Source: Escherichia phage vB_EcoM-P3322. From it: a DNA stretch of 64,000 nucleotides. The first letter of the stretch is position 1, and every line of letters begins with the position of its first letter. The stretch is taken from the sequence record PV191315.1. One strand, given 5' to 3'. The notes beneath the pieces are model-generated. The model was not told where the DNA came from. It saw only the letters and a program-made list of their open reading frames with translations, and made no database searches. Shown here piece by piece: positions 4,605 to 25,041 of the stretch. Position numbers and translations under genes: made by a program.

Positions 4605-4802
4605 ATGTTAGTCAGTGAAATACTACCTGACTCTAATGGTAATCAGATCACTGTTGATTGGTTTCCTGGTACTGGTACACTAGATCTAACTGCTGAATGG
4701 TCTGGTGATATTTATGGAGAAGGTGTATTATCATTGTCTACAGAACAAATGATCATCCTTCGTGACTTCTTAATTAGTTTAGATCTAGGAGAAAACAAAT
4801 GA
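4605..4802 (+). CDS. hypothetical protein
   Basis: Track ORF 4566..4802; start moved to ATG 4605 after TAGGAGAG. Confidence 0.45.
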   Translation: MLVSEILPDSNGNQITVDWFPGTGTLDLTAEWSGDIYGEGVLSLSTEQMIILRDFLISLDLGENK

Positions 4803-5068
4803 GTAAAACTTCTGTTGAGTTTATCGAGAAATCCCCTGTTCCAAAGTTATACCGTTTATCTGAAATTGAACCTATGTCTGTTTTCTACTACTACGATTCA
4901 GAAGTAAGTGAACAAGAACGGGACTACTACTTAGCTACAGATACAGGTGCAGTGTGCTTAACAGGTTCTCGTGCAGGAGAATACATTGTGACTAGTCGTT
5001 TTAATGAAGCAGATTACTGTTGGGCTAAGGTTGAAACTAAGATTGTCATCAACATCACTAATCATTAA
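4799..5068 (+). CDS. hypothetical protein
   Basis: Track ORF 89 aa; ATGA overlap with upstream gene. Confidence 0.5.
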   Translation: MSKTSVEFIEKSPVPKLYRLSEIEPMSVFYYYDSEVSEQERDYYLATDTGAVCLTGSRAGEYIVTSRFNEADYCWAKVETKIVINITNH

Positions 5069-5090
5069 GACTAATCTGACAAAGAGTTAC

Positions 5091-5120
5091 TTGACATGTG
5101 CAAAGCTCTTTGTGTAGAAT
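5091..5120 (+). promoter_or_regulatory. candidate sigma70-type promoter (TTGACA-N18-TAGAAT)
   Basis: Consensus hexamers 30 nt upstream of 5151; flanked by inverted repeat ACAAAGAG...CTCTTTGT. Confidence 0.4.
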
Positions 5121-5150
5121 AAAGATTCACTTACTAAGGAGATTTTATAA

Positions 5151-5348
5151 ATGGCTACAAAGAAACAGAAAATGAAATGTCTTACTCTCACTGAACTGGG
5201 TCAAGCTTCCAACTGCGTTACTGTTGGTAAGATTTATTCTACAGTTCTTGATAAAGACAACAACAGTTTTACTTTCAAAGATGATAACGGAAACCCTCAA
5301 GTTGGAATCTACCCTTCCTGTGCTTTTGGTACTTGGGAAAAAGTGTAA
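5151..5348 (+). CDS. hypothetical protein
   Basis: Track ORF 65 aa; SD AAGGAG. Confidence 0.5.
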   Translation: MATKKQKMKCLTLTELGQASNCVTVGKIYSTVLDKDNNSFTFKDDNGNPQVGIYPSCAFGTWEKV

Positions 5349-5391
5349 CTAATTAGAGGGTATACTTGTAAACAAGATTAAGGAGGCATTT

Positions 5392-5565
5392 ATGGGAGAT
5401 AAACAAAGTAACATCCGTTACGCGCTTTATGGAAGAATGGGTGCAGATTGTGAATGGATGCTTCTGTCGCAACGTATACCCTCTTACAAAGAGGCTCTTG
5501 AAAAAAGAGACTATTACAAACAAACATGGCGTTTTGTCATTTGTAAACACTATTTGGAGGCGTGA
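5392..5565 (+). CDS. small Cys-containing hypothetical protein (57 aa)
   Basis: Not in track; SD AAGGAGG 5 nt before ATG 5392; stop overlaps next start; preferred over alternative-frame track ORF 5429..5653. Confidence 0.4.
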   Translation: MGDKQSNIRYALYGRMGADCEWMLLSQRIPSYKEALEKRDYYKQTWRFVICKHYLEA

Positions 5566-11937: not shown

Positions 11938-11943
11938 AACTTA

Positions 11944-11966
11944 AAGGCGCACTTTGCGCCTTTTTT
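11944..11966 (+). terminator. rho-independent terminator
   Basis: Stem AAGGCGCA / TGCGCCTT with 3-nt loop, followed by TTTTTT. Confidence 0.6.
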
Positions 11967-14344: not shown

Positions 14345-14536
14345 ATGGTTACATATTTTGCTGTAGGAGATAGAGTAGGGACGGCGGGAGAACTTTTGAA
14401 GAACAGTGATCGGGACGTTAAGGACATTCTTGCAACCCTTGTGGATATTTTACAAAGAAAAGAGTTGCTTTCTGATCGAGATGTTGCTAAATTACTTGAT
14501 ATCGGAGGAGATGAACTTCAAAGACTTCCATTTTAA
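14345..14536 (+). CDS. hypothetical protein
   Basis: Track ORF 14312..14536; start moved to ATG 14345 after AGGAGG. Confidence 0.45.
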   Translation: MVTYFAVGDRVGTAGELLKNSDRDVKDILATLVDILQRKELLSDRDVAKLLDIGGDELQRLPF

Positions 14537-14551
14537 GTGAGGAGATAAGTA

Positions 14552-15157
14552 ATGCAACATAGTGTAGTAGTCAACATGCCGAATAGTGGGGATAAATCTT
14601 TTGGTGTCCCTGCTAAAAAAGTGTGGAAAGCCCATTTTCATCTTACTTTATCTAATGTTAGTTCTGAAGAGTTGATGAAAGCAGCTAAGATTATTGGTGC
14701 CAAATGCACAACAATTGATTTACATCGGGATACAAAGTCTCAACGTGATCGTATGTTAACAAAGTATCAAAGCGATCTCGACACTACTTTAATGTTGCAG
14801 TGTGTAGAAAAACTTGAGAATGCAGGTTTCAATGTTGTTCGTTACAAACTGGAACGAATGTTTAAACATGTTGCCTGTGTTCTTTTCATGGATCTAAGTA
14901 AAGAAAATTACGGAGAAGTTCACATTAAGACTTCAGCAAGTGATCCCGAAGTAGAAACAAACTTCTTCCGTATTTCTTCTAATGCTGAAGAAGTTGATTA
15001 CCGATTTTATAATGCTCGCTTATATTCCGCAGAAGATAAGTTGCGTTTCAATGAAGCGTATGATATGCTCTTGAACAGTGGGATACAGATAAAAGGCTAC
15101 CACATAGAACAAGTGGTAGTGGACAGTAATCTTAACTTAGACGCATGGTGGGCTTAA
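14552..15157 (+). CDS. hypothetical protein
   Basis: Track ORF 201 aa; SD GAGGAG; no recognisable motif. Confidence 0.55.
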   Translation: MQHSVVVNMPNSGDKSFGVPAKKVWKAHFHLTLSNVSSEELMKAAKIIGAKCTTIDLHRDTKSQRDRMLTKYQSDLDTTLMLQCVEKLENAGFNVVRYKLERMFKHVACVLFMDLSKENYGEVHIKTSASDPEVETNFFRISSNAEEVDYRFYNARLYSAEDKLRFNEAYDMLLNSGIQIKGYHIEQVVVDSNLNLDAWWA

Positions 15158-15158
15158 T

Positions 15159-15815
15159 ATGACTATTAAACATATCTCTTTTGATGTATGGAACACACTG
15201 ATCACAGCAAACTCCAATTACGCAGACATGCGAGCCTGGACTATCGCAAAATATGGAGATATTACGGAAGTGGAAGCAAGAGCAGCTTATAAAAAGATCA
15301 AAAAGGAACTGGATAATGCAGCACTTCAAGGCAAAGCCGAGTGTGCAGCATATGCTTGGGAAAGACTTGGTTCTGAACTTGGGATAACGCCTTGGAAGTC
15401 TGCAAAGCTTCGTTTCGAGTGTGAACAGTGGTTCCTTAAGTTTCCACCACACGTAGCCGTGGATCTGCCGATGTACTTGCTGTATCTTTCGGGGCGTTAT
15501 GATTTGAGTATTAAGAGCAATACCAACTTCATATCAGGGGATATCCTGCGTCGTGCTTGTAAGTTTGATAGTTGGAATTGTTTTGAGTTCACCCATTTCT
15601 CGGATGAAGCTTTACTTTGTAAACCAGATCCGCGATTCTTTGCTCGCACGCTCACGTATTCTCCGATCCCTCTGTTAGGGCACGAAGTGTTGCACGTAGG
15701 CGATAGTGAAGAATATGATGGAAAATGTGTTGACTTAGGATTTAACTTCTGTCATATTAAGAACCCTAACGACTTACTAGAGAAACTTAAAAGAGGAGAA
15801 ATTGTAAATGCGTAA
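15159..15815 (+). CDS. HAD-superfamily phosphatase-like hydrolase
   Basis: Motif I-like ISFDVWNTLI near N-terminus and motif IV-like HVGDSEEYD. Confidence 0.5.
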   Translation: MTIKHISFDVWNTLITANSNYADMRAWTIAKYGDITEVEARAAYKKIKKELDNAALQGKAECAAYAWERLGSELGITPWKSAKLRFECEQWFLKFPPHVAVDLPMYLLYLSGRYDLSIKSNTNFISGDILRRACKFDSWNCFEFTHFSDEALLCKPDPRFFARTLTYSPIPLLGHEVLHVGDSEEYDGKCVDLGFNFCHIKNPNDLLEKLKRGEIVNA

Positions 15816-16635
15816 TCAAACTCAAATTTTTGCAAATAAATTTGATGACCTGGAAACTGCTACTTTTGATATCCAAGATTATTCAAAATTGAAATTTGGT
15901 AGTAACCAAGCTGCGCGTCGTATGGGTAAAGAATTGGCACTTCAGTTTTTTGCTCAAGTGGCAATGAAACATATTGGGGAACAATTTGTTATCATTCCTT
16001 CTCCTTATAACCATGTGCATAATGCTGCAACAATGATGACAGATCATTTTATTAATTACTTTAATATGTTGCAATCACAATATGATCAAGGTCGTTCAGC
16101 AGAACTGGACATTATTCATCGTAAAGTTAGCTATATCAACGATTATGGTTTCTTGGATAAAGCTAGTCGTAAGAAACTTATTGATGGGGATACATTCTAC
16201 TGCAACAAAGAATTCTGGGGTGATAAGAAGCTTGTATTCATTGATGATGTAAATATCACTGGAACGCATGAAGACAAACTGATTGAGATCCTTGATGAAA
16301 ATCAAGTTAAAAATGATGTTTACTTCCTGTATTTTGCAAAATACGAAGGTAATCAAGCAGATACCGAAGCTAAACTGAATTTTAACTACATTAATACACC
16401 AGAAGCGTTTGTTAAAATGATTAATGAAGAACGTGATGCACAGTGTCTTGTTCGTCCTATTAAGTATCTTATGGGCCAAAATCATGAAGACTTCAAAATC
16501 ATTCTTAGCCAATTGCCACATTACTATGTAGAGCAACTTTTCTTTGGATGCTTGGGAGAAGGTTACAACCGAATTTCAAAGTATGCTGAAAACTTTGAAT
16601 TCTTGGATCGTTACACAAAACAACACATTCTGTAA
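15808..16635 (+). CDS. phosphoribosyltransferase-like protein
   Basis: PRPP-binding-loop-like KLVFIDDVNITGTHED; overlaps HAD gene by 8 nt. Confidence 0.45.
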   Translation: MRNQTQIFANKFDDLETATFDIQDYSKLKFGSNQAARRMGKELALQFFAQVAMKHIGEQFVIIPSPYNHVHNAATMMTDHFINYFNMLQSQYDQGRSAELDIIHRKVSYINDYGFLDKASRKKLIDGDTFYCNKEFWGDKKLVFIDDVNITGTHEDKLIEILDENQVKNDVYFLYFAKYEGNQADTEAKLNFNYINTPEAFVKMINEERDAQCLVRPIKYLMGQNHEDFKIILSQLPHYYVEQLFFGCLGEGYNRISKYAENFEFLDRYTKQHIL

Positions 16636-16648
16636 TAAGGAGCTAAAA

Positions 16649-17122
16649 ATGCTTAAAATTAAAACAGGTAATCTTATTGATGCCGCTAAAGCAGGTGAAG
16701 TAACTGTTATTGCTCATTGTTGCAACTGTATGTGTAATATGGGGGCAGGTATTGCCCCACAAATCAAACGAGCATTTCCTTACGCATATGCAGCAGACTT
16801 AGACACAATGGCTGGTGATCAAAGTAAACTAGGTTGTTTTAGTTTAGGGGTGCCAGACGAACAATCCGACCCTTTGGTATATAATCTATACGGGCAATAC
16901 CGTTACGGATACAATGCTAAAGGTCGTCAGTTGGACTATGATGCACTTTACGATGCACTAATAGCTATGGCTAACGATTTGCTTCTCCGTGACCAAAAAT
17001 GTAAGATCGGCTTACCTATGATTGGCGCTGGATATGCTGGAGGTAATTGGGCTATCATCCAAGTGATGATTGAAGAAACTTTAGTAAAAACAGGTCACGA
17101 TGTGACTATTTATAAACTTTAA
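16649..17122 (+). CDS. macro-domain protein (ADP-ribose binding/processing)
   Basis: Track ORF 16544..17122, start moved to ATG 16649 after AAGGAG; VIAHCCNCMCNMGAGIAPQIKRAFP aligns with the macro-domain Gly-rich loop, second loop LPMIGAGYAGG. Confidence 0.5.
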   Translation: MLKIKTGNLIDAAKAGEVTVIAHCCNCMCNMGAGIAPQIKRAFPYAYAADLDTMAGDQSKLGCFSLGVPDEQSDPLVYNLYGQYRYGYNAKGRQLDYDALYDALIAMANDLLLRDQKCKIGLPMIGAGYAGGNWAIIQVMIEETLVKTGHDVTIYKL

Positions 17123-17134
17123 GAGGAGATTAGT

Positions 17135-17356
17135 ATGGGTGTTTTTGCAGGTATTGTTGCAGTGGTAAGCTTTTTTGTTATTGCTTTTATGCTTAGTTTG
17201 ATTCCAGCTTGGTTACTGTTGCTGGCTTACAACTATGTTGCTGAAGTTATGGGTCATGCAGATATCACTGTCCCAGTAACCTTCTGGACCGTGGTTTGTG
17301 TTTCGTTTATTCTGGCTGTATTACGAGGAATCTTTTCCTCTCATTCAACAAAATAA
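17135..17356 (+). CDS. small membrane protein (2 TM)
   Basis: Track ORF 73 aa; hydrophobic helices; SD AGGAGA. Confidence 0.5.
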   Translation: MGVFAGIVAVVSFFVIAFMLSLIPAWLLLLAYNYVAEVMGHADITVPVTFWTVVCVSFILAVLRGIFSSHSTK

Positions 17357-17359
17357 GTG

Positions 17360-17387
17360 TTGACATAGTTCTTAAAAAGAGTAAGAT
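17360..17387 (+). promoter_or_regulatory. candidate sigma70-type promoter (TTGACA-N16-TAAGAT) preceded by motif AAAATAAGTG
   Basis: Consensus hexamers in the 80-nt gap before the TerC-like gene. Confidence 0.4.
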
Positions 17388-17399
17388 GTATCACATGAA

Positions 17400-17418
17400 G
17401 CGGGGAATAGTTCCCCGC
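17400..17418 (+). promoter_or_regulatory. 5' leader stem-loop GCGGGGAA-TAG-TTCCCCGC
   Basis: Perfect 8-bp GC-rich stem between promoter and RBS, no T-run after it. Confidence 0.3.
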
Positions 17419-17435
17419 AAAGAGAGGAGAAAAGA

Positions 17436-18410
17436 ATGCAACTTGGTTTCCCAATTATTGATGTAGTTGTTTTAGTTGGTATTTTAGCATTGTCTATTGG
17501 TATTGATTTCTTTGGTCACAAAGAAAATAAAGAAATTTCATTCAAATCCGCAGTTGGTTGGTCGATCTTTTGGATTGGTGTATCATTAGCTTATTATGGT
17601 TTTGTATACTTCCAACATGGTGCCGATTTTGCTAACTTGTTTTTAAGTGGATATGTGTTGGAAAAATCTTTGTCGGTAGATAACTTGGTAGTATTTGTAG
17701 CAGTATTCGCAAGTTTTGGTATTAAAAGCACACACTTGCAGCACAAGATTCTACTTTGGGGTATTGCAGGTGCGATTGTCTTCCGAGGTGTGTTTGTAGC
17801 AGTAGGCACTTACTTGTTAAGTTTGGGCTGGTATGTTAATATCTTCTTCGGTGCGGTCATCCTTTTCTGTGCAGCTAAAATGGTATTTGCTGGAGATAAT
17901 GACGCAGAAGTTGATTACTCTAAACACTGGGCTACCCGTATTGTTCGTAAACTGTTCCCTGTATCTAATAAAATGGATGGGGAGAAGTTCTTCACAATCG
18001 AAAATGGTGTTCGTGTAGCAACTCCAGCTTTGGTTTGCGTATTCGTGATGGAAATGGTGGATGTAATCTTTGCAGTAGATTCGGTTCCAGCGGTGATCGC
18101 AGTGACACAAGAACCCCTGCTTGTATTCTCTTCGATGTTATGTGCAATCTTAGGTCTACGTGCTCTGTTCTTTGTTCTTAGTGTCGCACTGAAGTATCTG
18201 GTTCACTTGGAGAAAGCAGTTATTGTGGTTCTGGTGTTTGTAGGCGTTAAACTGATGTATCACCCGTTTGCAGAAACATTGCATGAGAAAATGAGTTTCC
18301 TGCCAGCACATATTGATCCAACTATTAGTATGTATATCGTGCTTGGTACTTTGGCCCTTGGTGTTATTGCAAGCTTTATCTTCCCTGAAAAAGAAGAAGC
18401 TACTGTTTAA
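17436..18410 (+). CDS. TerC-family integral membrane protein
   Basis: 324 aa polytopic membrane protein; SLSVDNLVVFVAVF motif and paired acidic/His TM segments fit TerC/Alx pattern. Confidence 0.55.
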   Translation: MQLGFPIIDVVVLVGILALSIGIDFFGHKENKEISFKSAVGWSIFWIGVSLAYYGFVYFQHGADFANLFLSGYVLEKSLSVDNLVVFVAVFASFGIKSTHLQHKILLWGIAGAIVFRGVFVAVGTYLLSLGWYVNIFFGAVILFCAAKMVFAGDNDAEVDYSKHWATRIVRKLFPVSNKMDGEKFFTIENGVRVATPALVCVFVMEMVDVIFAVDSVPAVIAVTQEPLLVFSSMLCAILGLRALFFVLSVALKYLVHLEKAVIVVLVFVGVKLMYHPFAETLHEKMSFLPAHIDPTISMYIVLGTLALGVIASFIFPEKEEATV

Positions 18411-18416
18411 TAAATG

Positions 18417-18440
18417 AGCCTCCTTCGGGAGGCTATTTTA
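18417..18440 (+). terminator. rho-independent terminator
   Basis: AGCCTCC-TTCG-GGAGGCT hairpin followed by ATTTTA. Confidence 0.55.
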
Positions 18441-18452
18441 TAGGAGAGACTT

Positions 18453-18803
18453 ATGAGTAATTTTGATGAAATTCAAGAACTTGTTTGGGATTTATCTGGT
18501 GATGTGGATTACATTTCAGATTATCTTTCAAAAGTTTACCCTGGGGTAAGCGTTATGATTGTGACCAAAGATCCAATTAATTTGCCTCCTAACGTGGTAG
18601 CTTGTTGTGGAAGTGGTTCAGGAGAAGTAGAGCCTGTATCTCGTTGGGAATTAACTAAAGCTGTTTCAAAACGAAATGGTGAAGTTTTGAATATTGATAT
18701 CGAACAAATATGGACTTCTCCAGCAGCCAAATGGAATGATCCTAATGGTTGGGATTTGTTCTTCTGGGATAATGAAACTGATGATGAGGTATTTTTAAAA
18801 TGA
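18453..18803 (+). CDS. hypothetical protein
   Basis: Track ORF 116 aa. Confidence 0.5.
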   Translation: MSNFDEIQELVWDLSGDVDYISDYLSKVYPGVSVMIVTKDPINLPPNVVACCGSGSGEVEPVSRWELTKAVSKRNGEVLNIDIEQIWTSPAAKWNDPNGWDLFFWDNETDDEVFLK

Positions 18804-19045
18804 AATACTTGTTGGTTGTGTTTGAAAATATTTGTTTTGCAATAGGGTTGTTTGTTGTAATTTTTGTATTGACAAGCGTAATCAACGGCAGTAAAGTGAG
18901 TTTATACCGAGATGGAGAGCAACTCTATTGCTTCTCTGGAGATTTCAAACACAGATGTATTAATAGTCAAAATGAGGAAAGCAAATATGAAAAAACTAGC
19001 CCTGATTTTAATTGGTTGTATCTTTTTAACAGCTTGCGAGGATGA
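18800..19045 (+). CDS. small protein with N-terminal TM helix; overlaps next gene in another frame
   Basis: Track ORF 81 aa; ATGA overlap with upstream gene; TM FAIGLFVVIFVLTSVI; reality uncertain because of 59-nt overlap. Confidence 0.3.
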   Translation: MKYLLVVFENICFAIGLFVVIFVLTSVINGSKVSLYRDGEQLYCFSGDFKHRCINSQNEESKYEKTSPDFNWLYLFNSLRG

Positions 19046-19424
19046 AACAAATCCTGCACAATACCAACAACCTCCTCAACAATACACTCAACAAGGATCT
19101 GACGGAGATACAACTATTATCAACAATGGTGGCGGTTCTAGTAGTAGTGGTGTTGGTGAGTTTGCTACAGGTATGTTGTTAGGGCATATGATGAGTGGCA
19201 GTAGTAATCGTAGCAGTGGTGATTATAACGATAACAGAACGATTATTAATAAGCATTATAATACACCTAAACCGAAAACTAATTTTTATGGTAAGCCTAA
19301 ACAAGAGATAAAAACTTATGAAAAGCCGAGACAAACTTTTAAAACAAATAGTAGCTATACAACTCGTAAATCTTACAATAGCCCTTTAAGTAAAAAGAGT
19401 TCATCTCGTAGCAAGCGACGTTAA
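18987..19424 (+). CDS. lipoprotein, low-complexity Q/S/N-rich with basic C-terminus
   Basis: Track ORF 18912..19424; start moved to ATG 18987 after GAGGAAAG; lipobox LTAC in MKKLALILIGCIFLTACEDE. Confidence 0.5.
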   Translation: MKKLALILIGCIFLTACEDETNPAQYQQPPQQYTQQGSDGDTTIINNGGGSSSSGVGEFATGMLLGHMMSGSSNRSSGDYNDNRTIINKHYNTPKPKTNFYGKPKQEIKTYEKPRQTFKTNSSYTTRKSYNSPLSKKSSSRSKRR

Positions 19425-19438
19425 TAAGGAGAAAAACA

Positions 19439-20032
19439 ATGACAATTTCTATTCGTACTTCCATCGTAGGTGTTAAAAGGTTGCCTAATGCTTTGCAAAT
19501 CACACGCGCTTTGAGGGATACATTCTCTGCTGTGGACGAGCATAAGATGCTTGATAATCTTTCAAATTGGCCCTATTTCCATTATTTTAAAAATGAAGAT
19601 GACGAGTTTATAGACGCTGTTTCTTATGGTTATGATTTCGGTAAGGAGGTTTCTGCTGAAGAATTTGTAGCTATGGTGTTCCCAAACGGTTTGCCTACTC
19701 GCAGTAAACGTAAAAAAGGACCAAAAAACAAGAAACGTGCTACTAATAAAGCTACCATTTTCTTTACTGATGGCACACAATATACGATTAAAGATTTTGA
19801 AGAGGTATCTTATACAGCAGGTGGGAATCTTTCTTTCTACACCATCAAAAAACAAAACTCTACGTTCAGCCATGTTTCTAACATGATTGAAATGTTAGTA
19901 GAAGATATTGAAAGCGTGGCTGTGTTAGGTATGCATAAAAGCTTTTTAATTACAAATATTTCAGATTTCAGTGCAAGTTTATCTGGCCCTGATTTTGAAG
20001 CCACGACCACGCATTTCGCTTTTAAGGTGTAA
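19439..20032 (+). CDS. hypothetical protein
   Basis: Track ORF 197 aa; SD AAGGAGAAAAAC. Confidence 0.55.
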   Translation: MTISIRTSIVGVKRLPNALQITRALRDTFSAVDEHKMLDNLSNWPYFHYFKNEDDEFIDAVSYGYDFGKEVSAEEFVAMVFPNGLPTRSKRKKGPKNKKRATNKATIFFTDGTQYTIKDFEEVSYTAGGNLSFYTIKKQNSTFSHVSNMIEMLVEDIESVAVLGMHKSFLITNISDFSASLSGPDFEATTTHFAFKV

Positions 20033-20035
20033 GTT

Positions 20036-20626
20036 ATGCATACCGAGAGAGACTTGCAACTCTTGTGGTGGGAAGTGATGCAGGAAATAAAAGAAGATTT
20101 TCCTGCTTACTACAACATGTTACGTGAAGCAGGATATAAAGCTTGTGTTAGAAACAAAGTGAATAACTCTTTCGGTTGGTGCAACTACCGAGATAAAATT
20201 GTTGTTGTAAATTGGCACTTGCATAAGAACTCCACAAGAGATATGATCGTGGATACAATGAAGCACGAAATTGCTCATGCTATTGATGGTTGTATGGGTA
20301 AGTTTAGTAGGCACGGTGCTCATTGGCAAAAACTGGCAGCAGAATTAGGGGCTAATCCTAAAGCCACTTCCAAAGAGCCGTTGAACCACGAATATAAATA
20401 TGTTCTTGTTCTGGTAGATAGGTTTGCGACAAGATGTGTTAGAGGTTATAATCGTAAACCTAATCGCATGTACCCAGGTAAGCAACCTAATATGTGGTTG
20501 AAATCAGATAAAGAAGGGACCGAAGGAAAATTATGGTTGTATAAATGGGACGATTGGGTTAAAGTAGCTAAAGAGTACGGTGTTTCACCATATATAAGAG
20601 ATGCAGAAGAGGAGAATGAAGAATGA
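20036..20626 (+). CDS. SprT-like zinc metalloprotease-domain protein
   Basis: HExxH in TMKHEIAHAI with downstream HGAHW and upstream GWCNYRDKIVVVNWHL, matching SprT-like layout. Confidence 0.5.
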   Translation: MHTERDLQLLWWEVMQEIKEDFPAYYNMLREAGYKACVRNKVNNSFGWCNYRDKIVVVNWHLHKNSTRDMIVDTMKHEIAHAIDGCMGKFSRHGAHWQKLAAELGANPKATSKEPLNHEYKYVLVLVDRFATRCVRGYNRKPNRMYPGKQPNMWLKSDKEGTEGKLWLYKWDDWVKVAKEYGVSPYIRDAEEENEE

Positions 20627-21735
20627 CAAGTCCATTTTTAAAAGCAGCTACTGGTGGTCAGAAGAAGCCTGAAATGAGCGTATTTGCTGCAACAACAGAT
20701 GCAAGTAAATCTGTATTCGCTCCAAGCGTGTTAGATGCCAGTCCTGTTTATGCACCAGCGGCACCGCAAGAAGTTCCAGTTTTGCCTTCTATGACCCGAC
20801 AAGAGATCGAAGAGATTGGGGCAGAGGCAGGAACAACCTTGCGTTCCTTGAATGCCGAGGTATTAAAACATCAACGTAGTAATCAAGGCGATCAGATGAG
20901 TGAACGACTCACAGCTTTGATTAAACAGGCAAAACAACTTGATCCAAACTCTATTAAACAAAGCAAGGGTATTACTAAACTCATTAAAAAAGTTATGGGT
21001 ATGAAAGAAGATCTGTTTGGGGAGTTTGATAATGTTAATAACCGTATTGAAGAGTTGGTAAAGAACCTTCAAATGGATATTCGCAAAGAAGAAGATTCCT
21101 TGGTATATCTTGAAAAGCTACATCAAGCTATTGGACAATATGCTGCAAGTTTGAACCGAGATATGCAGCTTCTAACAGCAACCTATGAAAAAGAAGAACA
21201 AGCTTTGGCTGCTCTTCCAGAAGATGCAGTAGAACAGCGACAAGTGATCCGAGATACTTTGGATCTTCTGGAGATTCGTATTGCAGATTTAAAAGCATTG
21301 CGCCTACTGTGTGTCCAAATGGGACCGCGTGTACAAGGTATGCAAAAAGTTTCTGCAAGCTTAATGCGATCTGCGCGTAACATAGTAAATAATGTTATTC
21401 CTGCTTACTCTGCTAACTTCTCAATGTATATCGAGAGCTTACGTCAAATGAAAGCAGCAGAGACGCAGAATAACGTTCTTGATGAATTTAACCTGGCAAT
21501 TAAACTGGGTAGCGATCTTGCCACACAGAATCAGATCGAAGCAGCAGCACTGGCTAACCGTCAAGTGTTGGATATTGAAACTCTGCGTCACGATCAGGAA
21601 AACTTGGTTAAGATGTTGGAAGAAACTAACCGCATCAATACGGAAGCCCGTGCTGCTCGTGTTGATTATATTAATGAAGTTCAATCTCTGGAAGACGGGA
21701 TGGTAGCTGCTGTGAAACGAGGGCTTGGTAAATGA
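20623..21735 (+). CDS. TelA-like (toxic anion resistance family) coiled-coil protein, tentative
   Basis: 370 aa helical, Gln/Leu-rich with heptad-like stretches; call by size, composition and Ter-gene context only. Confidence 0.35.
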   Translation: MTSPFLKAATGGQKKPEMSVFAATTDASKSVFAPSVLDASPVYAPAAPQEVPVLPSMTRQEIEEIGAEAGTTLRSLNAEVLKHQRSNQGDQMSERLTALIKQAKQLDPNSIKQSKGITKLIKKVMGMKEDLFGEFDNVNNRIEELVKNLQMDIRKEEDSLVYLEKLHQAIGQYAASLNRDMQLLTATYEKEEQALAALPEDAVEQRQVIRDTLDLLEIRIADLKALRLLCVQMGPRVQGMQKVSASLMRSARNIVNNVIPAYSANFSMYIESLRQMKAAETQNNVLDEFNLAIKLGSDLATQNQIEAAALANRQVLDIETLRHDQENLVKMLEETNRINTEARAARVDYINEVQSLEDGMVAAVKRGLGK

Positions 21736-21929
21736 GAATCCGTATCTATATAATTGATGAAGACATTGGTGTCCGTTATGATGACGAAAAACGATTCGCA
21801 CCGATGGGAGGTATATATCCCCCAAGTGTTCTAGCAGTTTGTCGTGATTGTTATATTTATGAAGGTTGTCGTAACTTCCGTAAATTCGAACTCCTTGCAG
21901 ATATTGACTTCAATGAGGAGGAGGAGTAA
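21732..21929 (+). CDS. hypothetical protein
   Basis: Track ORF 65 aa; ATGA overlap. Confidence 0.45.
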   Translation: MRIRIYIIDEDIGVRYDDEKRFAPMGGIYPPSVLAVCRDCYIYEGCRNFRKFELLADIDFNEEEE

Positions 21930-22099
21930 TGAAAATATTACGAGTGAATATTGAAACTGCTTGGTGTGGATGCAATGAGGTTGTGGATATCGAAATTGAA
22001 GATGATATGTCTCAAGAGGATATAGAAGATCTTGCGCACGAAACCTTTCAGGATTATTGTAATTACGGGTTCCATATTTTAGAGGAGGAAGAAGATGTT
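21929..22099 (+). CDS. small acidic hypothetical protein (56 aa)
   Basis: Not in track; TAATG overlap upstream, SD GAGGAGGAG, stop overlaps next start; MKILRVNIETAWCGCNEVVDIEIEDD... Confidence 0.4.
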
Positions 22100-22298
22100 T
22101 AACTACGATAACGATCCTAATATTATCCAGTTAACCCGACAAGAACTGATCACAATCATTGAAGATGCTTTTATTGATGGCTGGAATACACAAGATAATG
22201 ACTGGGGTGGACCCGAAGCTTTTCTGGAACATCATAAAACTTATGGAGACTCTTGTGAAACCACTGTAGCTCTTGATAATCTGAAGGAGGGTTTGTAA
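22095..22298 (+). CDS. hypothetical protein
   Basis: Track ORF 67 aa; SD GAGGAGG. Confidence 0.5.
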   Translation: MFNYDNDPNIIQLTRQELITIIEDAFIDGWNTQDNDWGGPEAFLEHHKTYGDSCETTVALDNLKEGL

Positions 22299-22861
22299 TG
22301 GGTTGTTTTAGCTTTTTGTGCAAAGAATCGGGCAAAGCTGCCCTTTCTACTTCTTTCGACGGATCACCTTGCTACCTCTTTCTTTTGAAGGACGGTGTTG
22401 TTATTGAAGAGATGTATGGCAACTATGATAGTTATGGTTGTGTTTTCTCTGGAAAGGAGGATGAAAACGGCGTTCGTGAACGGTTCGAATGGGCTATGGA
22501 TTGGGGTAAGGTTTGTGATTTGATGCATTCCTCAAATCCAAGGGACGGTATCGCTATGGTGCTGGAAGAGTACTTTACAGGTGAAATCCCTACAGAACAA
22601 TCTGACGGAGATCCTAACCAAGGTTGGGGTGATGGTGAAGAAGATCCAGATTGTTTTTTCAGCACAGAAAAGAATAAGTTTAAACGTGTTGACAACCCTT
22701 ATCACAAAGTGCATAATACTCTCATTGAAACAGAAGATGACAAGATGGAAATTGAAGAAGATGATCCTCTTGTAACACTTCCTATAAGTGAGTTACAAAA
22801 GATCACTAAGGAAGCTTACGATTTGGGCTTCAAAATTGGTAGAGGAGGTATGCGTGTTTAG
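22298..22861 (+). CDS. hypothetical protein
   Basis: Track ORF 187 aa. Confidence 0.5.
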   Translation: MGCFSFLCKESGKAALSTSFDGSPCYLFLLKDGVVIEEMYGNYDSYGCVFSGKEDENGVRERFEWAMDWGKVCDLMHSSNPRDGIAMVLEEYFTGEIPTEQSDGDPNQGWGDGEEDPDCFFSTEKNKFKRVDNPYHKVHNTLIETEDDKMEIEEDDPLVTLPISELQKITKEAYDLGFKIGRGGMRV

Positions 22862-23132
22862 ATTCAATATTCAAGAAGAAAAAAGTCAGGATTTACCTAT
22901 TGCTTTCGAAGATCTTGACGTAGGGGCCACATTCATGTATTATGATGCCTATGAAGACGCAGGGTTGGATACCTACCGTAACTTGGTGTTCATTAAAAAT
23001 TCCACAAACAGTGCGATTTGTATTAATGGATCACTAGCACAACGAGGCTATACTCATTGCATCCCACCAGATACAAATATGGTGGAAGTAGATTTAGAAG
23101 TTACCAATATTACACTTAAGAAGGAGAAATAA
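22854..23132 (+). CDS. small protein, paralog A (of 24154..24423)
   Basis: Track ORF 22788..23132; start moved to GTG 22854 after AGAGGAGG; shares DLDVG(A/D)TF and EV(D/E)L.VT.ITLK with paralog B. Confidence 0.45.
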   Translation: MFRFNIQEEKSQDLPIAFEDLDVGATFMYYDAYEDAGLDTYRNLVFIKNSTNSAICINGSLAQRGYTHCIPPDTNMVEVDLEVTNITLKKEK

Positions 23133-23133
23133 T

Positions 23134-23928
23134 ATGTCCGAGAAAATCAGCCTGAAAAAACGTCAAGAAAACCTTGCTTTCTCTCTGAAAAAGAATAAGA
23201 ACCTGAACGAAGGTAAGATTGTTCTTCGTGTAGCATGTGCTCTAGATATTTCTGGTAGTATGCATGGTCTATATTCTAGTGGGGTAGTGAGTGATTTTGT
23301 AGGTAAACTGCTTCCTTTTGGTATGCTGTTCGACGATAATCAACAAATTGATATGTGGGCCTTCAATACGAGTTCCCAAGAGCTTACTCCAGCAACAGCA
23401 GATGTTTACGATGACTATGTTGGTAAATGTATGCGTAATGTTCGTATCGGAGGTGGAACAAATTACGCCCCTGTAATGGCGGATATCTACGATGAGTATT
23501 TTGGCACTGTTACTAAATATATTACCACTAAACAAGTGGTACAAGAGGAGGCTCCAAAGAAAGGTTTCTTTAATCGTCTACTTGGTAAAACTGAAACAGT
23601 ATCTGTAGAGCGTGAAAAGGTCGTAGCTGTATCTGAACCAGGTGCTGACGTTACCCCTGGTGTTGTATTCTTCCAAACGGATGGTGAGAATGGTGATCCT
23701 AGTGCTGTTCGTCGTCTTATCGAAGAGAATAAGAATAAACCTATTTATTGGTTCATGGTTGGCGTTGGTAATGAGAAGTTTGGCTTCCTGAAAGAACTGG
23801 CAAATGCTTATGATAATGTTGGTTTTATTGGTATTAAAGATTTAGACTTGACAGATTCAGAGCTTTATGACAAACTCTTATCTGAAGAGTTCGGAGAGTG
23901 GGTTGTTAAAGTAGGTGCTAAAAAATGA
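23134..23928 (+). CDS. von Willebrand factor A domain protein, TerY-like
   Basis: MIDAS-type LDISGSMHG after hydrophobic strand VLRVACA; N-terminus EKISLKK echoes TerD N-terminal motif. Confidence 0.5.
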   Translation: MSEKISLKKRQENLAFSLKKNKNLNEGKIVLRVACALDISGSMHGLYSSGVVSDFVGKLLPFGMLFDDNQQIDMWAFNTSSQELTPATADVYDDYVGKCMRNVRIGGGTNYAPVMADIYDEYFGTVTKYITTKQVVQEEAPKKGFFNRLLGKTETVSVEREKVVAVSEPGADVTPGVVFFQTDGENGDPSAVRRLIEENKNKPIYWFMVGVGNEKFGFLKELANAYDNVGFIGIKDLDLTDSELYDKLLSEEFGEWVVKVGAKK

Positions 23929-24173
23929 TCGACGAGCTTGCCTCTCAAGTCATAGAAAATTATTGGCGCGAGAGAGAAGCTTTCATTATGCGCAGTCTCA
24001 AAGAGTATTTCATTGGGACTGTGCGAATGGAAGATATTGTAAGTAGAGTAGAGATTCATGTATGGCCTGATTATGAAGAATGGGTTGACAAAGAAAATGA
24101 AAATGCTATAATTCTTCGTATATACAAACCGGAGATAACATTAGGAGGAAGAAGTGTTAAACTTCGAAATTGA
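23925..24173 (+). CDS. hypothetical protein
   Basis: Track ORF 82 aa; ATGA overlap. Confidence 0.45.
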   Translation: MIDELASQVIENYWREREAFIMRSLKEYFIGTVRMEDIVSRVEIHVWPDYEEWVDKENENAIILRIYKPEITLGGRSVKLRN

Positions 24174-24423
24174 TGAGCAAAAAGTAAATAAACGATGCCT
24201 TACCATTAAAGATTTGGATGTAGGAGATACTTTCGTCTATGAAAATGCATTTGACGAAAATGGTTTAGACCTTAGTGAAATCATTGTTTATTTAAAAGTA
24301 GATGATGGGGAAAACGATTATTCTGCTGTAGAACTAAACCATCATGCACAATTAGTATCAATCCAAAACACATCTAAGCTTTTGGAAGTAGAATTGACTG
24401 TAACTGGTATTACACTTAAATAA
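24154..24423 (+). CDS. small protein, paralog B (of 22854..23132)
   Basis: Track ORF 89 aa; GTG start after AGGAGG; paralog motifs as above. Confidence 0.45.
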   Translation: MLNFEIDEQKVNKRCLTIKDLDVGDTFVYENAFDENGLDLSEIIVYLKVDDGENDYSAVELNHHAQLVSIQNTSKLLEVELTVTGITLK

Positions 24424-24438
24424 TAGAGGAGACAAAAG

Positions 24439-25041
24439 ATGACTGATAAAATTTCCCTGAAAAAAGGCTCTAGCGAAAAAATTTCCCTGAAGAAAGTTGC
24501 TCCGGCTCTGAAAGAACTGCGCCTGGAATTCTCTTGGAAATCTGATTCTAAACTGGATCTGGATGTAAGTGCACTGGTTTGTCGTCATAATGCCGCTGGC
24601 AATCCTGAAATGTTGTCTGCACGTCATCTGGTTTGCTATGCTAACAAGTTTGATCCTGAACGTTCTACCTTCGCTGGTGACGATGTTCGTGATGGAACTG
24701 GTAGCATGGAGCAGATTGATATTACTCTGGCTAAAATCTCTCCTGATGCACAAGAGATTGCCTTTGTTCTGACCATTGATGATGATACAGGTCTGAAACG
24801 TTTTGGTCATGCTTCTGAAGGTATGCTTAAAATCTTCGACTCCGAGCGCAATGTGGAAATTCTGGATTTTGACTTCCTGGCTCCTGAAGTAGCTGGCAAC
24901 ACAATCTGCCACGTGGCTTCCTTGGTTCGTGAAGATGGGGAATGGAAGCTGAAAGCATATGGTGTAGGTAAAGCTGGTCTGGATATTTGTGATGTGGTGA
25001 TGGCCTTCGGTGGTAAAAAAGAATGGTATGAATGTCCATAA
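24439..25041 (+). CDS. TerD-domain protein
   Basis: N-terminal KISLKKG..EKISLKK, central Ca-binding-type AGDDVRDGTGS, C-terminal EWKLKAYGVGKAGL all fit TerD; strong host-like codon bias. Confidence 0.65.
   Translation: MTDKISLKKGSSEKISLKKVAPALKELRLEFSWKSDSKLDLDVSALVCRHNAAGNPEMLSARHLVCYANKFDPERSTFAGDDVRDGTGSMEQIDITLAKISPDAQEIAFVLTIDDDTGLKRFGHASEGMLKIFDSERNVEILDFDFLAPEVAGNTICHVASLVREDGEWKLKAYGVGKAGLDICDVVMAFGGKKEWYECP

Follow-up and report, generated by a model that had tools for sequence, protein, structure and literature searches.

A macrodomain protein at the edge of a phage Ter-like gene cluster is a candidate counter-defence hydrolase

The gene at positions 16649-17122 (+ strand) of the 64,000-nt stretch of DNA analysed here (the window), from an E. 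coli phage of the genus Phapecoctavirus (Stephanstirmvirinae), encodes a small macrodomain protein, hereafter the macro protein. Judged by sequence, it is a member of the PHROG 335 family, which holds Tk.4/AdfM and Adpp, and belongs to the SCO6735-like subclass of the TARG1/DarG/ALC1-like macrodomains. We propose, with about even confidence, that it is a stand-alone, catalytically competent counter-defence hydrolase that, like AdfM, reverses the modification of DNA by DarT2. The macro protein would bind the ADP-ribose moiety of its substrate and cleave off the group that the distal ribose carries at its 1'' carbon. The thymidines of single-stranded phage DNA receive ADP-ribose from DarT2-type toxins, and the macro protein would remove it, allowing replication to proceed. 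The enzyme has probably retained phosphatase activity towards ADP-ribose-1''-phosphate (ADPR-1''-P) as well, which would be seen in vitro. The macro gene would thus be an accessory counter-defence gene, and its product would not work with the neighbouring HAD hydrolase and phosphoribosyltransferase (PRTase_3), which would form a separate module associated with the Ter cluster.

Results

The macro gene has an ATG start and encodes 157 amino acids followed by a stop codon. In the list of open reading frames it is nested in a longer, TTG-started frame (16544-17122); the alignment with 39 homologues shows that they use the same Met, and direct reading of the sequence places a Shine-Dalgarno motif, AAGGAG (16637-16642, + strand), 6 nt 5' of the ATG. 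The surrounding stretch of the window (14500-18500) is matched by 134 phage records and is 99.3% identical to Escherichia phage tuntematon. The macro gene lies in a + strand block running from nrdD to a small membrane gene, with intergenic gaps of -4, 1, -8, 13 and 12 nt. Upstream of it are the genes of the HAD-superfamily hydrolase (15159-15815, +; phrog_14393) and of its downstream partner PRTase_3, a ComF-like type I phosphoribosyltransferase (15808-16635, +; PF15610, Pfam 2.2e-41; PRPP loop LVFIDDVNITGTH). The preliminary description of the locus gave the HAD and PRTase genes an 8-nt overlap and the PRTase and macro genes a 13-nt gap (16636-16648), both of which are exact, and took this packing as a sign of one functional unit. 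However, the packing does not set these three genes apart, because tight spacing is general across the block.

Before the HAD gene lies a gene for a 201-amino-acid protein (14552-15157, +; phrog_22504), which matches the PADLOC 'AbiEi' models (4e-13) and resembles in fold some uncharacterised phage and giant-virus proteins; an identity as 2H phosphoesterase was considered for it and rejected. The small membrane gene that follows the macro gene (17135-17356, +; 73 amino acids, phrog_16065) accompanies macro and TerC genes in Stephanstirmvirinae. It is followed by the gene of a TerC-family membrane protein (17436-18410, +), the first of a Ter-like cluster spanning 17436-25041 that also contains SprT-like (20036-20626), TelA (20623-21735), vWA-TerF-like (23134-23928) and TerD (24439-25041) genes, all on the + strand. 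The preliminary description missed that the macro gene borders a Ter cluster carried by the phage. The Ter-like gene set of the window recurs in jumbo phages and in Otagovirus. A terminator-like hairpin (18417-18434, +) stands directly 3' of TerC and, together with another at 11943-11963, flanks the genes nrdD through TerC. Between the small membrane gene and TerC are 79 nt (17357-17435), in which we noted a promoter-like TTGACA-16-TAAGAT (17360-17387) as well as a hairpin, GCGGGGAATAGTTCCCCGC. Riboswitches are often found upstream of TerC genes; an Rfam scan of the whole window gave no matches, TerC-type riboswitches included.

The identification of a 157-residue macrodomain protein proved sound: Pfam, PHROG, PDB matches and a structural model agree on it, and the HMM and structure searches that had been proposed as a check returned the macro fold. 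The Pfam match (PF01661, Macro; residues 23-135) reaches 23.1 bits where the gathering threshold is 22, a narrow margin that is backed by the other evidence. The match to phrog_335 ("phosphatase") is at 3e-54; the same PHROG includes the Tk.4 of phage RB14, the Adpp of phage Gary and the homologues of Otagovirus, Pakpunavirus and Certrevirus. A sequence search of the PDB found SCO6735 (5E3B) as the best match (9e-13), TARG1/OARD1 and Thermus DarG at about 2e-6, and also BT1257. The AlphaFold2 model, built on 39 homologues (pLDDT 93.5, pTM 0.90), has the three-layer alpha/beta/alpha macro fold. When this model was compared with the PDB by Foldseek, 215 matches were obtained at E<=1e-3, the top 50 of which are all macrodomains, headed by TARG1 (1e-11, TM 0.79/0.88) and followed by BT1257, DarG, Poa1p and SCO6735. 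The PADLOC DarG model matches residues 1-156 at 4e-10, Tk.4 and Adpp scoring about equally among the three proteins tested; the score with the NCBIfam DarG model, 34.6, is far under its cut-off of 250. GenBank records annotate the protein as "putative phosphatase, Macro_Poa1p_like". In some homologues, annotated or predicted N-terminal extensions of about 70-80 residues were seen, as in phage inny (238 amino acids; 4734-5450 of locus L005) and in the metagenomic proteins P0030, P0031, P0036 and P0037 (221-223 amino acids).

The residues expected of an active centre are kept. Across 39 homologues, H23, N26, Q83, G126, G132 and W134 are invariant and G128 is conserved; the Gly-rich loops named in the preliminary description, N26..G32-A-G34-I-A36 and P123..G126-A-G128..G132-x-W134, are both invariant or nearly so. 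The catalytic Lys of TARG1 (K84) and DarG (K80), which closes the central strand, is replaced by Gln83, and the protein thus lacks the Lys-based centre of these enzymes. Instead, it has both features of SCO6735, a Gln in place of the catalytic Lys and a longer mobile loop, in an alignment that runs ungapped through GQ...Y. Q83 aligns with Gln85 of SCO6735, and H23 and N26 with its H24 and N27; H23 also aligns with H23 of Poa1p, H32 of TARG1 and H24 of Gary Adpp. Since the active-site residues are kept and Q83 corresponds to Gln85, the macro protein appears to be enzymatically active and to fall in the SCO6735-like subclass. Of the two lysines that position DNA in SCO6735, Lys34 and Lys89, the first corresponds to Ala33, and the loop carries R85, K91 and R93 instead. 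A130 occupies the position of TARG1 D125.

Relatives of the macro protein have been tested in both of the roles that we consider most closely. SCO6735 cleaves thymidine-linked ADP-ribose on DNA, with Gln85 as an essential catalytic residue (PMC9411070). Tk.4 of T4, named AdfM (anti-DarT factor), was found in a transposon screen (HIDEN-SEQ) to be required for growth of T4 on DarTG2 (10.1101/2025.11.20.689424). The name AdfM was given independently to PhiKZ gp104, which strips DarT2 marks from DNA (PMC13309987); the macrodomain of gp104 resembles DarG more closely and has a catalytic Lys, K78. ICP1 AdfB was considered as a further relative and set aside: according to its paper it acts by contacting DarT directly, and it is not introduced there as a macrodomain protein. 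In the record of a mutant T4, clone T4_7t1 (OL964745; 2531-2906 of locus L010), we saw tk.4 split into two short coding sequences; in RB14 it is intact (155 amino acids). Gary Adpp, encoded in a NARP1 operon, is an ADPR-1''-P phosphatase; it converts the product of aRES, a RES-domain defence present in E. coli, to ADP-ribose, from which NARP1 then rebuilds NAD+ (10.64898/2026.01.28.702374). In the same study the Adpp mutant H24A (listed in Table S4) was inactive, and inactivation of any one of Adps, Adpp and Namat abolished anti-aRES activity (10.64898/2026.01.28.702374). Thus the anti-defence function that the preliminary description had offered as its second option is the role of the tested homologues, Tk.4/AdfM against DarTG2 and Gary Adpp, through NARP1, against aRES.

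The protein itself is homologous to both phage enzymes. Pairwise alignment gave 36% identity with the Tk.4 orthologue of RB14 across 124 residues (70 bits, 6e-21) and 40% with Gary Adpp across the full length (108 bits, 1e-35); identity to a NARP1-adjacent Otagovirus protein reaches 47%. The His, Asn and Gln are common to Tk.4, Adpp and the macro protein, and an alignment including Tk.4 and Adpp revealed no residues that separate the DNA hydrolases from the ADPR-1''-P phosphatases. In a neighbour-joining (NJ) tree, both Tk.4 and Gary Adpp fall inside the macro family relative to TARG1, and NARP1-linked and stand-alone genes are intermixed: the macro protein clusters with Stephanstirmvirinae sequences and with stand-alone, apparently Vequintavirinae-like ones, and NARP1-linked Otagovirus and Pakpunavirus sequences stand next to this group. 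As no discriminating residue was found and the tree mixes contexts, the substrate is assigned from what the genome contains and not from the protein itself.

Gene contexts were surveyed in the 80 IMG/VR macro loci closest to the macro protein, NARP1 genes being counted within 7 kb. Namat and/or Adps were found in 38 of them, the HAD-PRTase_3-macro-TerC arrangement in four (all Stephanstirmvirinae-type contigs), Ter genes only in one, and neither module in the remaining 37. In Thalassavirus the macro gene is flanked by Adps and Namat, in Pakpunavirus and Otagovirus it directly follows Namat, and in Certrevirus and T4-like phages it stands alone. In Pseudomonas phage M5.1 (L004) we observed Adps-Namat-macro followed by TelA-vWA-TerC-TerD within a few kb, and in a 211-kb IMG/VR contig (L114) TerC-TerD-vWA-HAD-PRTase_3 with a Namat-like gene 4 kb on. 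The occurrence of NARP1 genes near Ter clusters in these two cases may reflect a shared hotspot for accessory genes or a functional link.

The main alternative, which we consider unlikely, is that the macro protein acts as Adpp does: it would take the phosphate from the ADPR-1''-P that aRES and other RES-domain NAD+ phosphorylases produce, and the resulting ADP-ribose would enter the rebuilding of NAD+, of which this is the initial step. The proteins closest to it in sequence are NARP1-associated, nearly half of the loci surveyed carry Namat and/or Adps, the proven phosphatase Gary Adpp has its catalytic His aligned with H23, and a matching defence occurs in E. coli. However, the phage type lacks NARP1. 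The window and three pieces of the 99%-identical tuntematon genome, which together give the whole genome of that phage, contained no tblastn match to Adps or Namat at E<=0.1, and neither is annotated. There is accordingly no adjoining Adps-Namat operon, and a role as NARP1-AP was rejected on this ground. Nor is PRTase_3 a hidden Adps: hhalign matched only the 33-column PRPP loop, with a probability of 0.6%, and a profile search of the PDB with PRTase_3 gave only a weak match to HPRT. Because PRTase_3 shares no more than this loop with Adps, the genome has no known user of the ADP-ribose that would be produced. Since Adpp did not counter aRES once either Adps or Namat had been inactivated, and this phage type has no NARP1, we regard the AdfM-like role as the most likely one. 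Against it stand the sequence of the macro protein, which is nearer to that of Adpp enzymes linked to NARP1 than to that of Tk.4, the loop of Tk.4, which is 5 residues shorter, and Ala33, which replaces the DNA-positioning Lys34 of SCO6735.

The neighbours of the macro gene in the window, HAD and PRTase_3, were the basis of the first option of the preliminary description, in which the macrodomain would process an intermediate made by the pair. The PRTase had not been recognized there as the ComF-like type of PF15610, which we take to be the type described with Ter operons. Anantharaman, Iyer and Aravind are said to have described, in 2012, a Ter-associated HAD/PRTase biosynthetic module; we found no mention of PF15610 in the papers searched. 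The HAD protein has FDVWNT as motif I, with Trp at Asp+2, where classical HAD phosphatases have a second Asp, and going by this motif the label 'phosphatase' may be wrong.

PRTase_3 was surveyed in 17 viral IMG/VR loci (L101-L117), in two jumbo-phage loci (L006 and L008), a T4-like contig (L009) and two rhizobial plasmids (L099 and L100). Each of the 22 loci had a HAD gene immediately 5' of PRTase_3, the two usually overlapping and often, not always, lying beside Ter genes; HAD and PRTase_3 are therefore an obligate, self-contained pair. The macro gene, in contrast, does not co-occur consistently with the pair. It is absent beside PRTase_3 in 12 of the 17 viral loci, the five with it all being of one phage subfamily (Stephanstirmvirinae-type), and absent too from the jumbo-phage loci, with TelA-vWA-TerC-HAD-PRTase_3-TerD, and from the T4-like contig and both plasmids, which have the bare HAD-PRTase_3 pair. 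Even where all three genes are present they can be apart, by about 10.5 kb in the 153-kb contig IMGVR_UViG_3300041405_000148 (L020/L113) and by an insertion of about 950 nt between PRTase_3 and the macro gene in L103.

We therefore think it improbable that HAD, PRTase_3 and the macro protein make up a shared pathway of three enzymes, in which the macro protein would process a phosphoribosylated or ADP-ribose-like intermediate of a Ter-associated 'nucleoside-like metabolite'. For this idea speak the three genes' common strand and their position between the two terminator-like hairpins, and the order HAD-PRTase_3-macro-small TM-TerC, which Phapecoctavirus shares with Justusliebigvirus and with related metagenomic contigs, at macro protein identities as low as about 49%. 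Such conservation of placement across two genera could reflect a functional link. Yet the pair is near only four of the 80 closest macro loci, the macro gene being mostly NARP1-linked or alone, and tight spacing is usual in this block. As the pair occurs without the macro gene outside one subfamily, the adjacency is a trait of one lineage, and the data do not support a pathway. Of the preliminary interpretation, then, the macrodomain and the anti-defence option stand, and the shared pathway and the single functional unit, given a self-contained HAD-PRTase_3 pair, do not.

A variant of the shared pathway seems to us a little more doubtful still: in Stephanstirmvirinae the macro gene may have been recruited to HAD/PRTase_3 instead of to NARP1, giving a three-enzyme route from a defence product derived from ADP-ribose (ADPR-1''-P or ADP-ribose) to a usable or harmless nucleoside or nucleotide, a route that might be linked to the phage Ter cluster. 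The occurrence of NARP1 genes or HAD/PRTase_3 in comparable Ter-adjoining positions in different phages (M5.1 and L114) speaks loosely for it. If true, such a HAD/PRTase_3/macro route would be undescribed.

Equally doubtful is a housekeeping function for the phage's own NAD+ consumers, such as deacetylation of O-acetyl-ADP-ribose made by a Sir2-like enzyme, or reversal of phage-made ADP-ribosylation. Sirtuins make O-acetyl-ADP-ribose or ADP-ribosylate proteins, and both products are macrodomain substrates; one Sir2-like protein, gp208, is annotated in tuntematon (136756-137571 of NC_052660.1; 1757-2572 of L018). However, this gene is about 100 kb from the macro gene in record coordinates, and homologues of the macro protein are found in many phages whatever the context. 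Least probable of all is a macro protein without catalytic activity that would merely bind or soak up immune signals derived from ADP-ribose, such as the gcADPR of Thoeris: derivatives of ADP-ribose are ligands of macrodomains, and phages are known to have sponges for signals of this kind, but the invariance of the catalytic His, Asn and Gln in 39 homologues points to an enzyme, and both tested relatives, AdfM and Adpp, are enzymes.

Discussion

The macro protein adds no new kind of system; it joins a known family of phage counter-defence macrodomains. Macrodomain genes of the PHROG 335 family are present in roughly 6% of sequenced phage genomes: of 50,697 phage records searched by tblastn, 2,980 contained a homologue, the tk.4 genes of T4-like phages among them. 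The family has recently been tied to two counter-defence roles, reversal of DNA ADP-ribosylation by DarT2 and rebuilding of NAD+ after RES-type cleavage. An Adpp-like sequence in a genome without NARP1 is a test case for whether one type of enzyme serves both roles or the family is split. Both the substrate and the defence system that the macro protein would counter we infer, favouring DarT2-modified DNA and DarT2-type toxins. Phages like phAPEC8 are candidates for phage therapy, where a knowledge of the defences that they overcome helps to predict host range.

Among known systems, the macro protein shares the macro fold and the aligned His with yeast Poa1p (6LFQ) and human TARG1 (OARD1); S30 and F152 of Poa1p are replaced by N30 and A130. 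The macrodomain of DarG (Thermus 5M3E, M. tuberculosis 5M3I) resembles it in fold (Foldseek 1e-9, TM about 0.77-0.80) and in the Asn; however, the macro protein has neither the catalytic Lys of DarG (K80) and PhiKZ gp104 (K78) nor the C-terminal DarT-binding domain of DarG, and its gene has no darT neighbour. With SCO6735 of Streptomyces coelicolor (5E3B) and BT1257 of Bacteroides it shares Gln for the Lys of TARG1/DarG, a mobile loop of equal length and the motif GxGxAGGxW, although SCO6735 is encoded by a bacterial chromosomal gene under a DNA-damage promoter. Gary Adpp (KNV71_gp137 of a Vibrio phage) shares PHROG 335, the long loop and the catalytic His (H24, corresponding to H23), whereas its gene stands between those of Adps and Namat and its action depends on both, and the phage type studied here has neither. 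Tk.4 differs in sequence, at 36% identity over 124 residues, in the loop after the catalytic Gln, 5 residues shorter than in the macro protein, and in the place of its gene, which lies between vs and tk, away from Ter genes. In other respects Tk.4 is alike: it belongs to PHROG 335, has about 155 residues, matches the PADLOC DarG macrodomain model, has His, Asn and Gln at the same positions, and is encoded by a stand-alone gene in a phage without NARP1.
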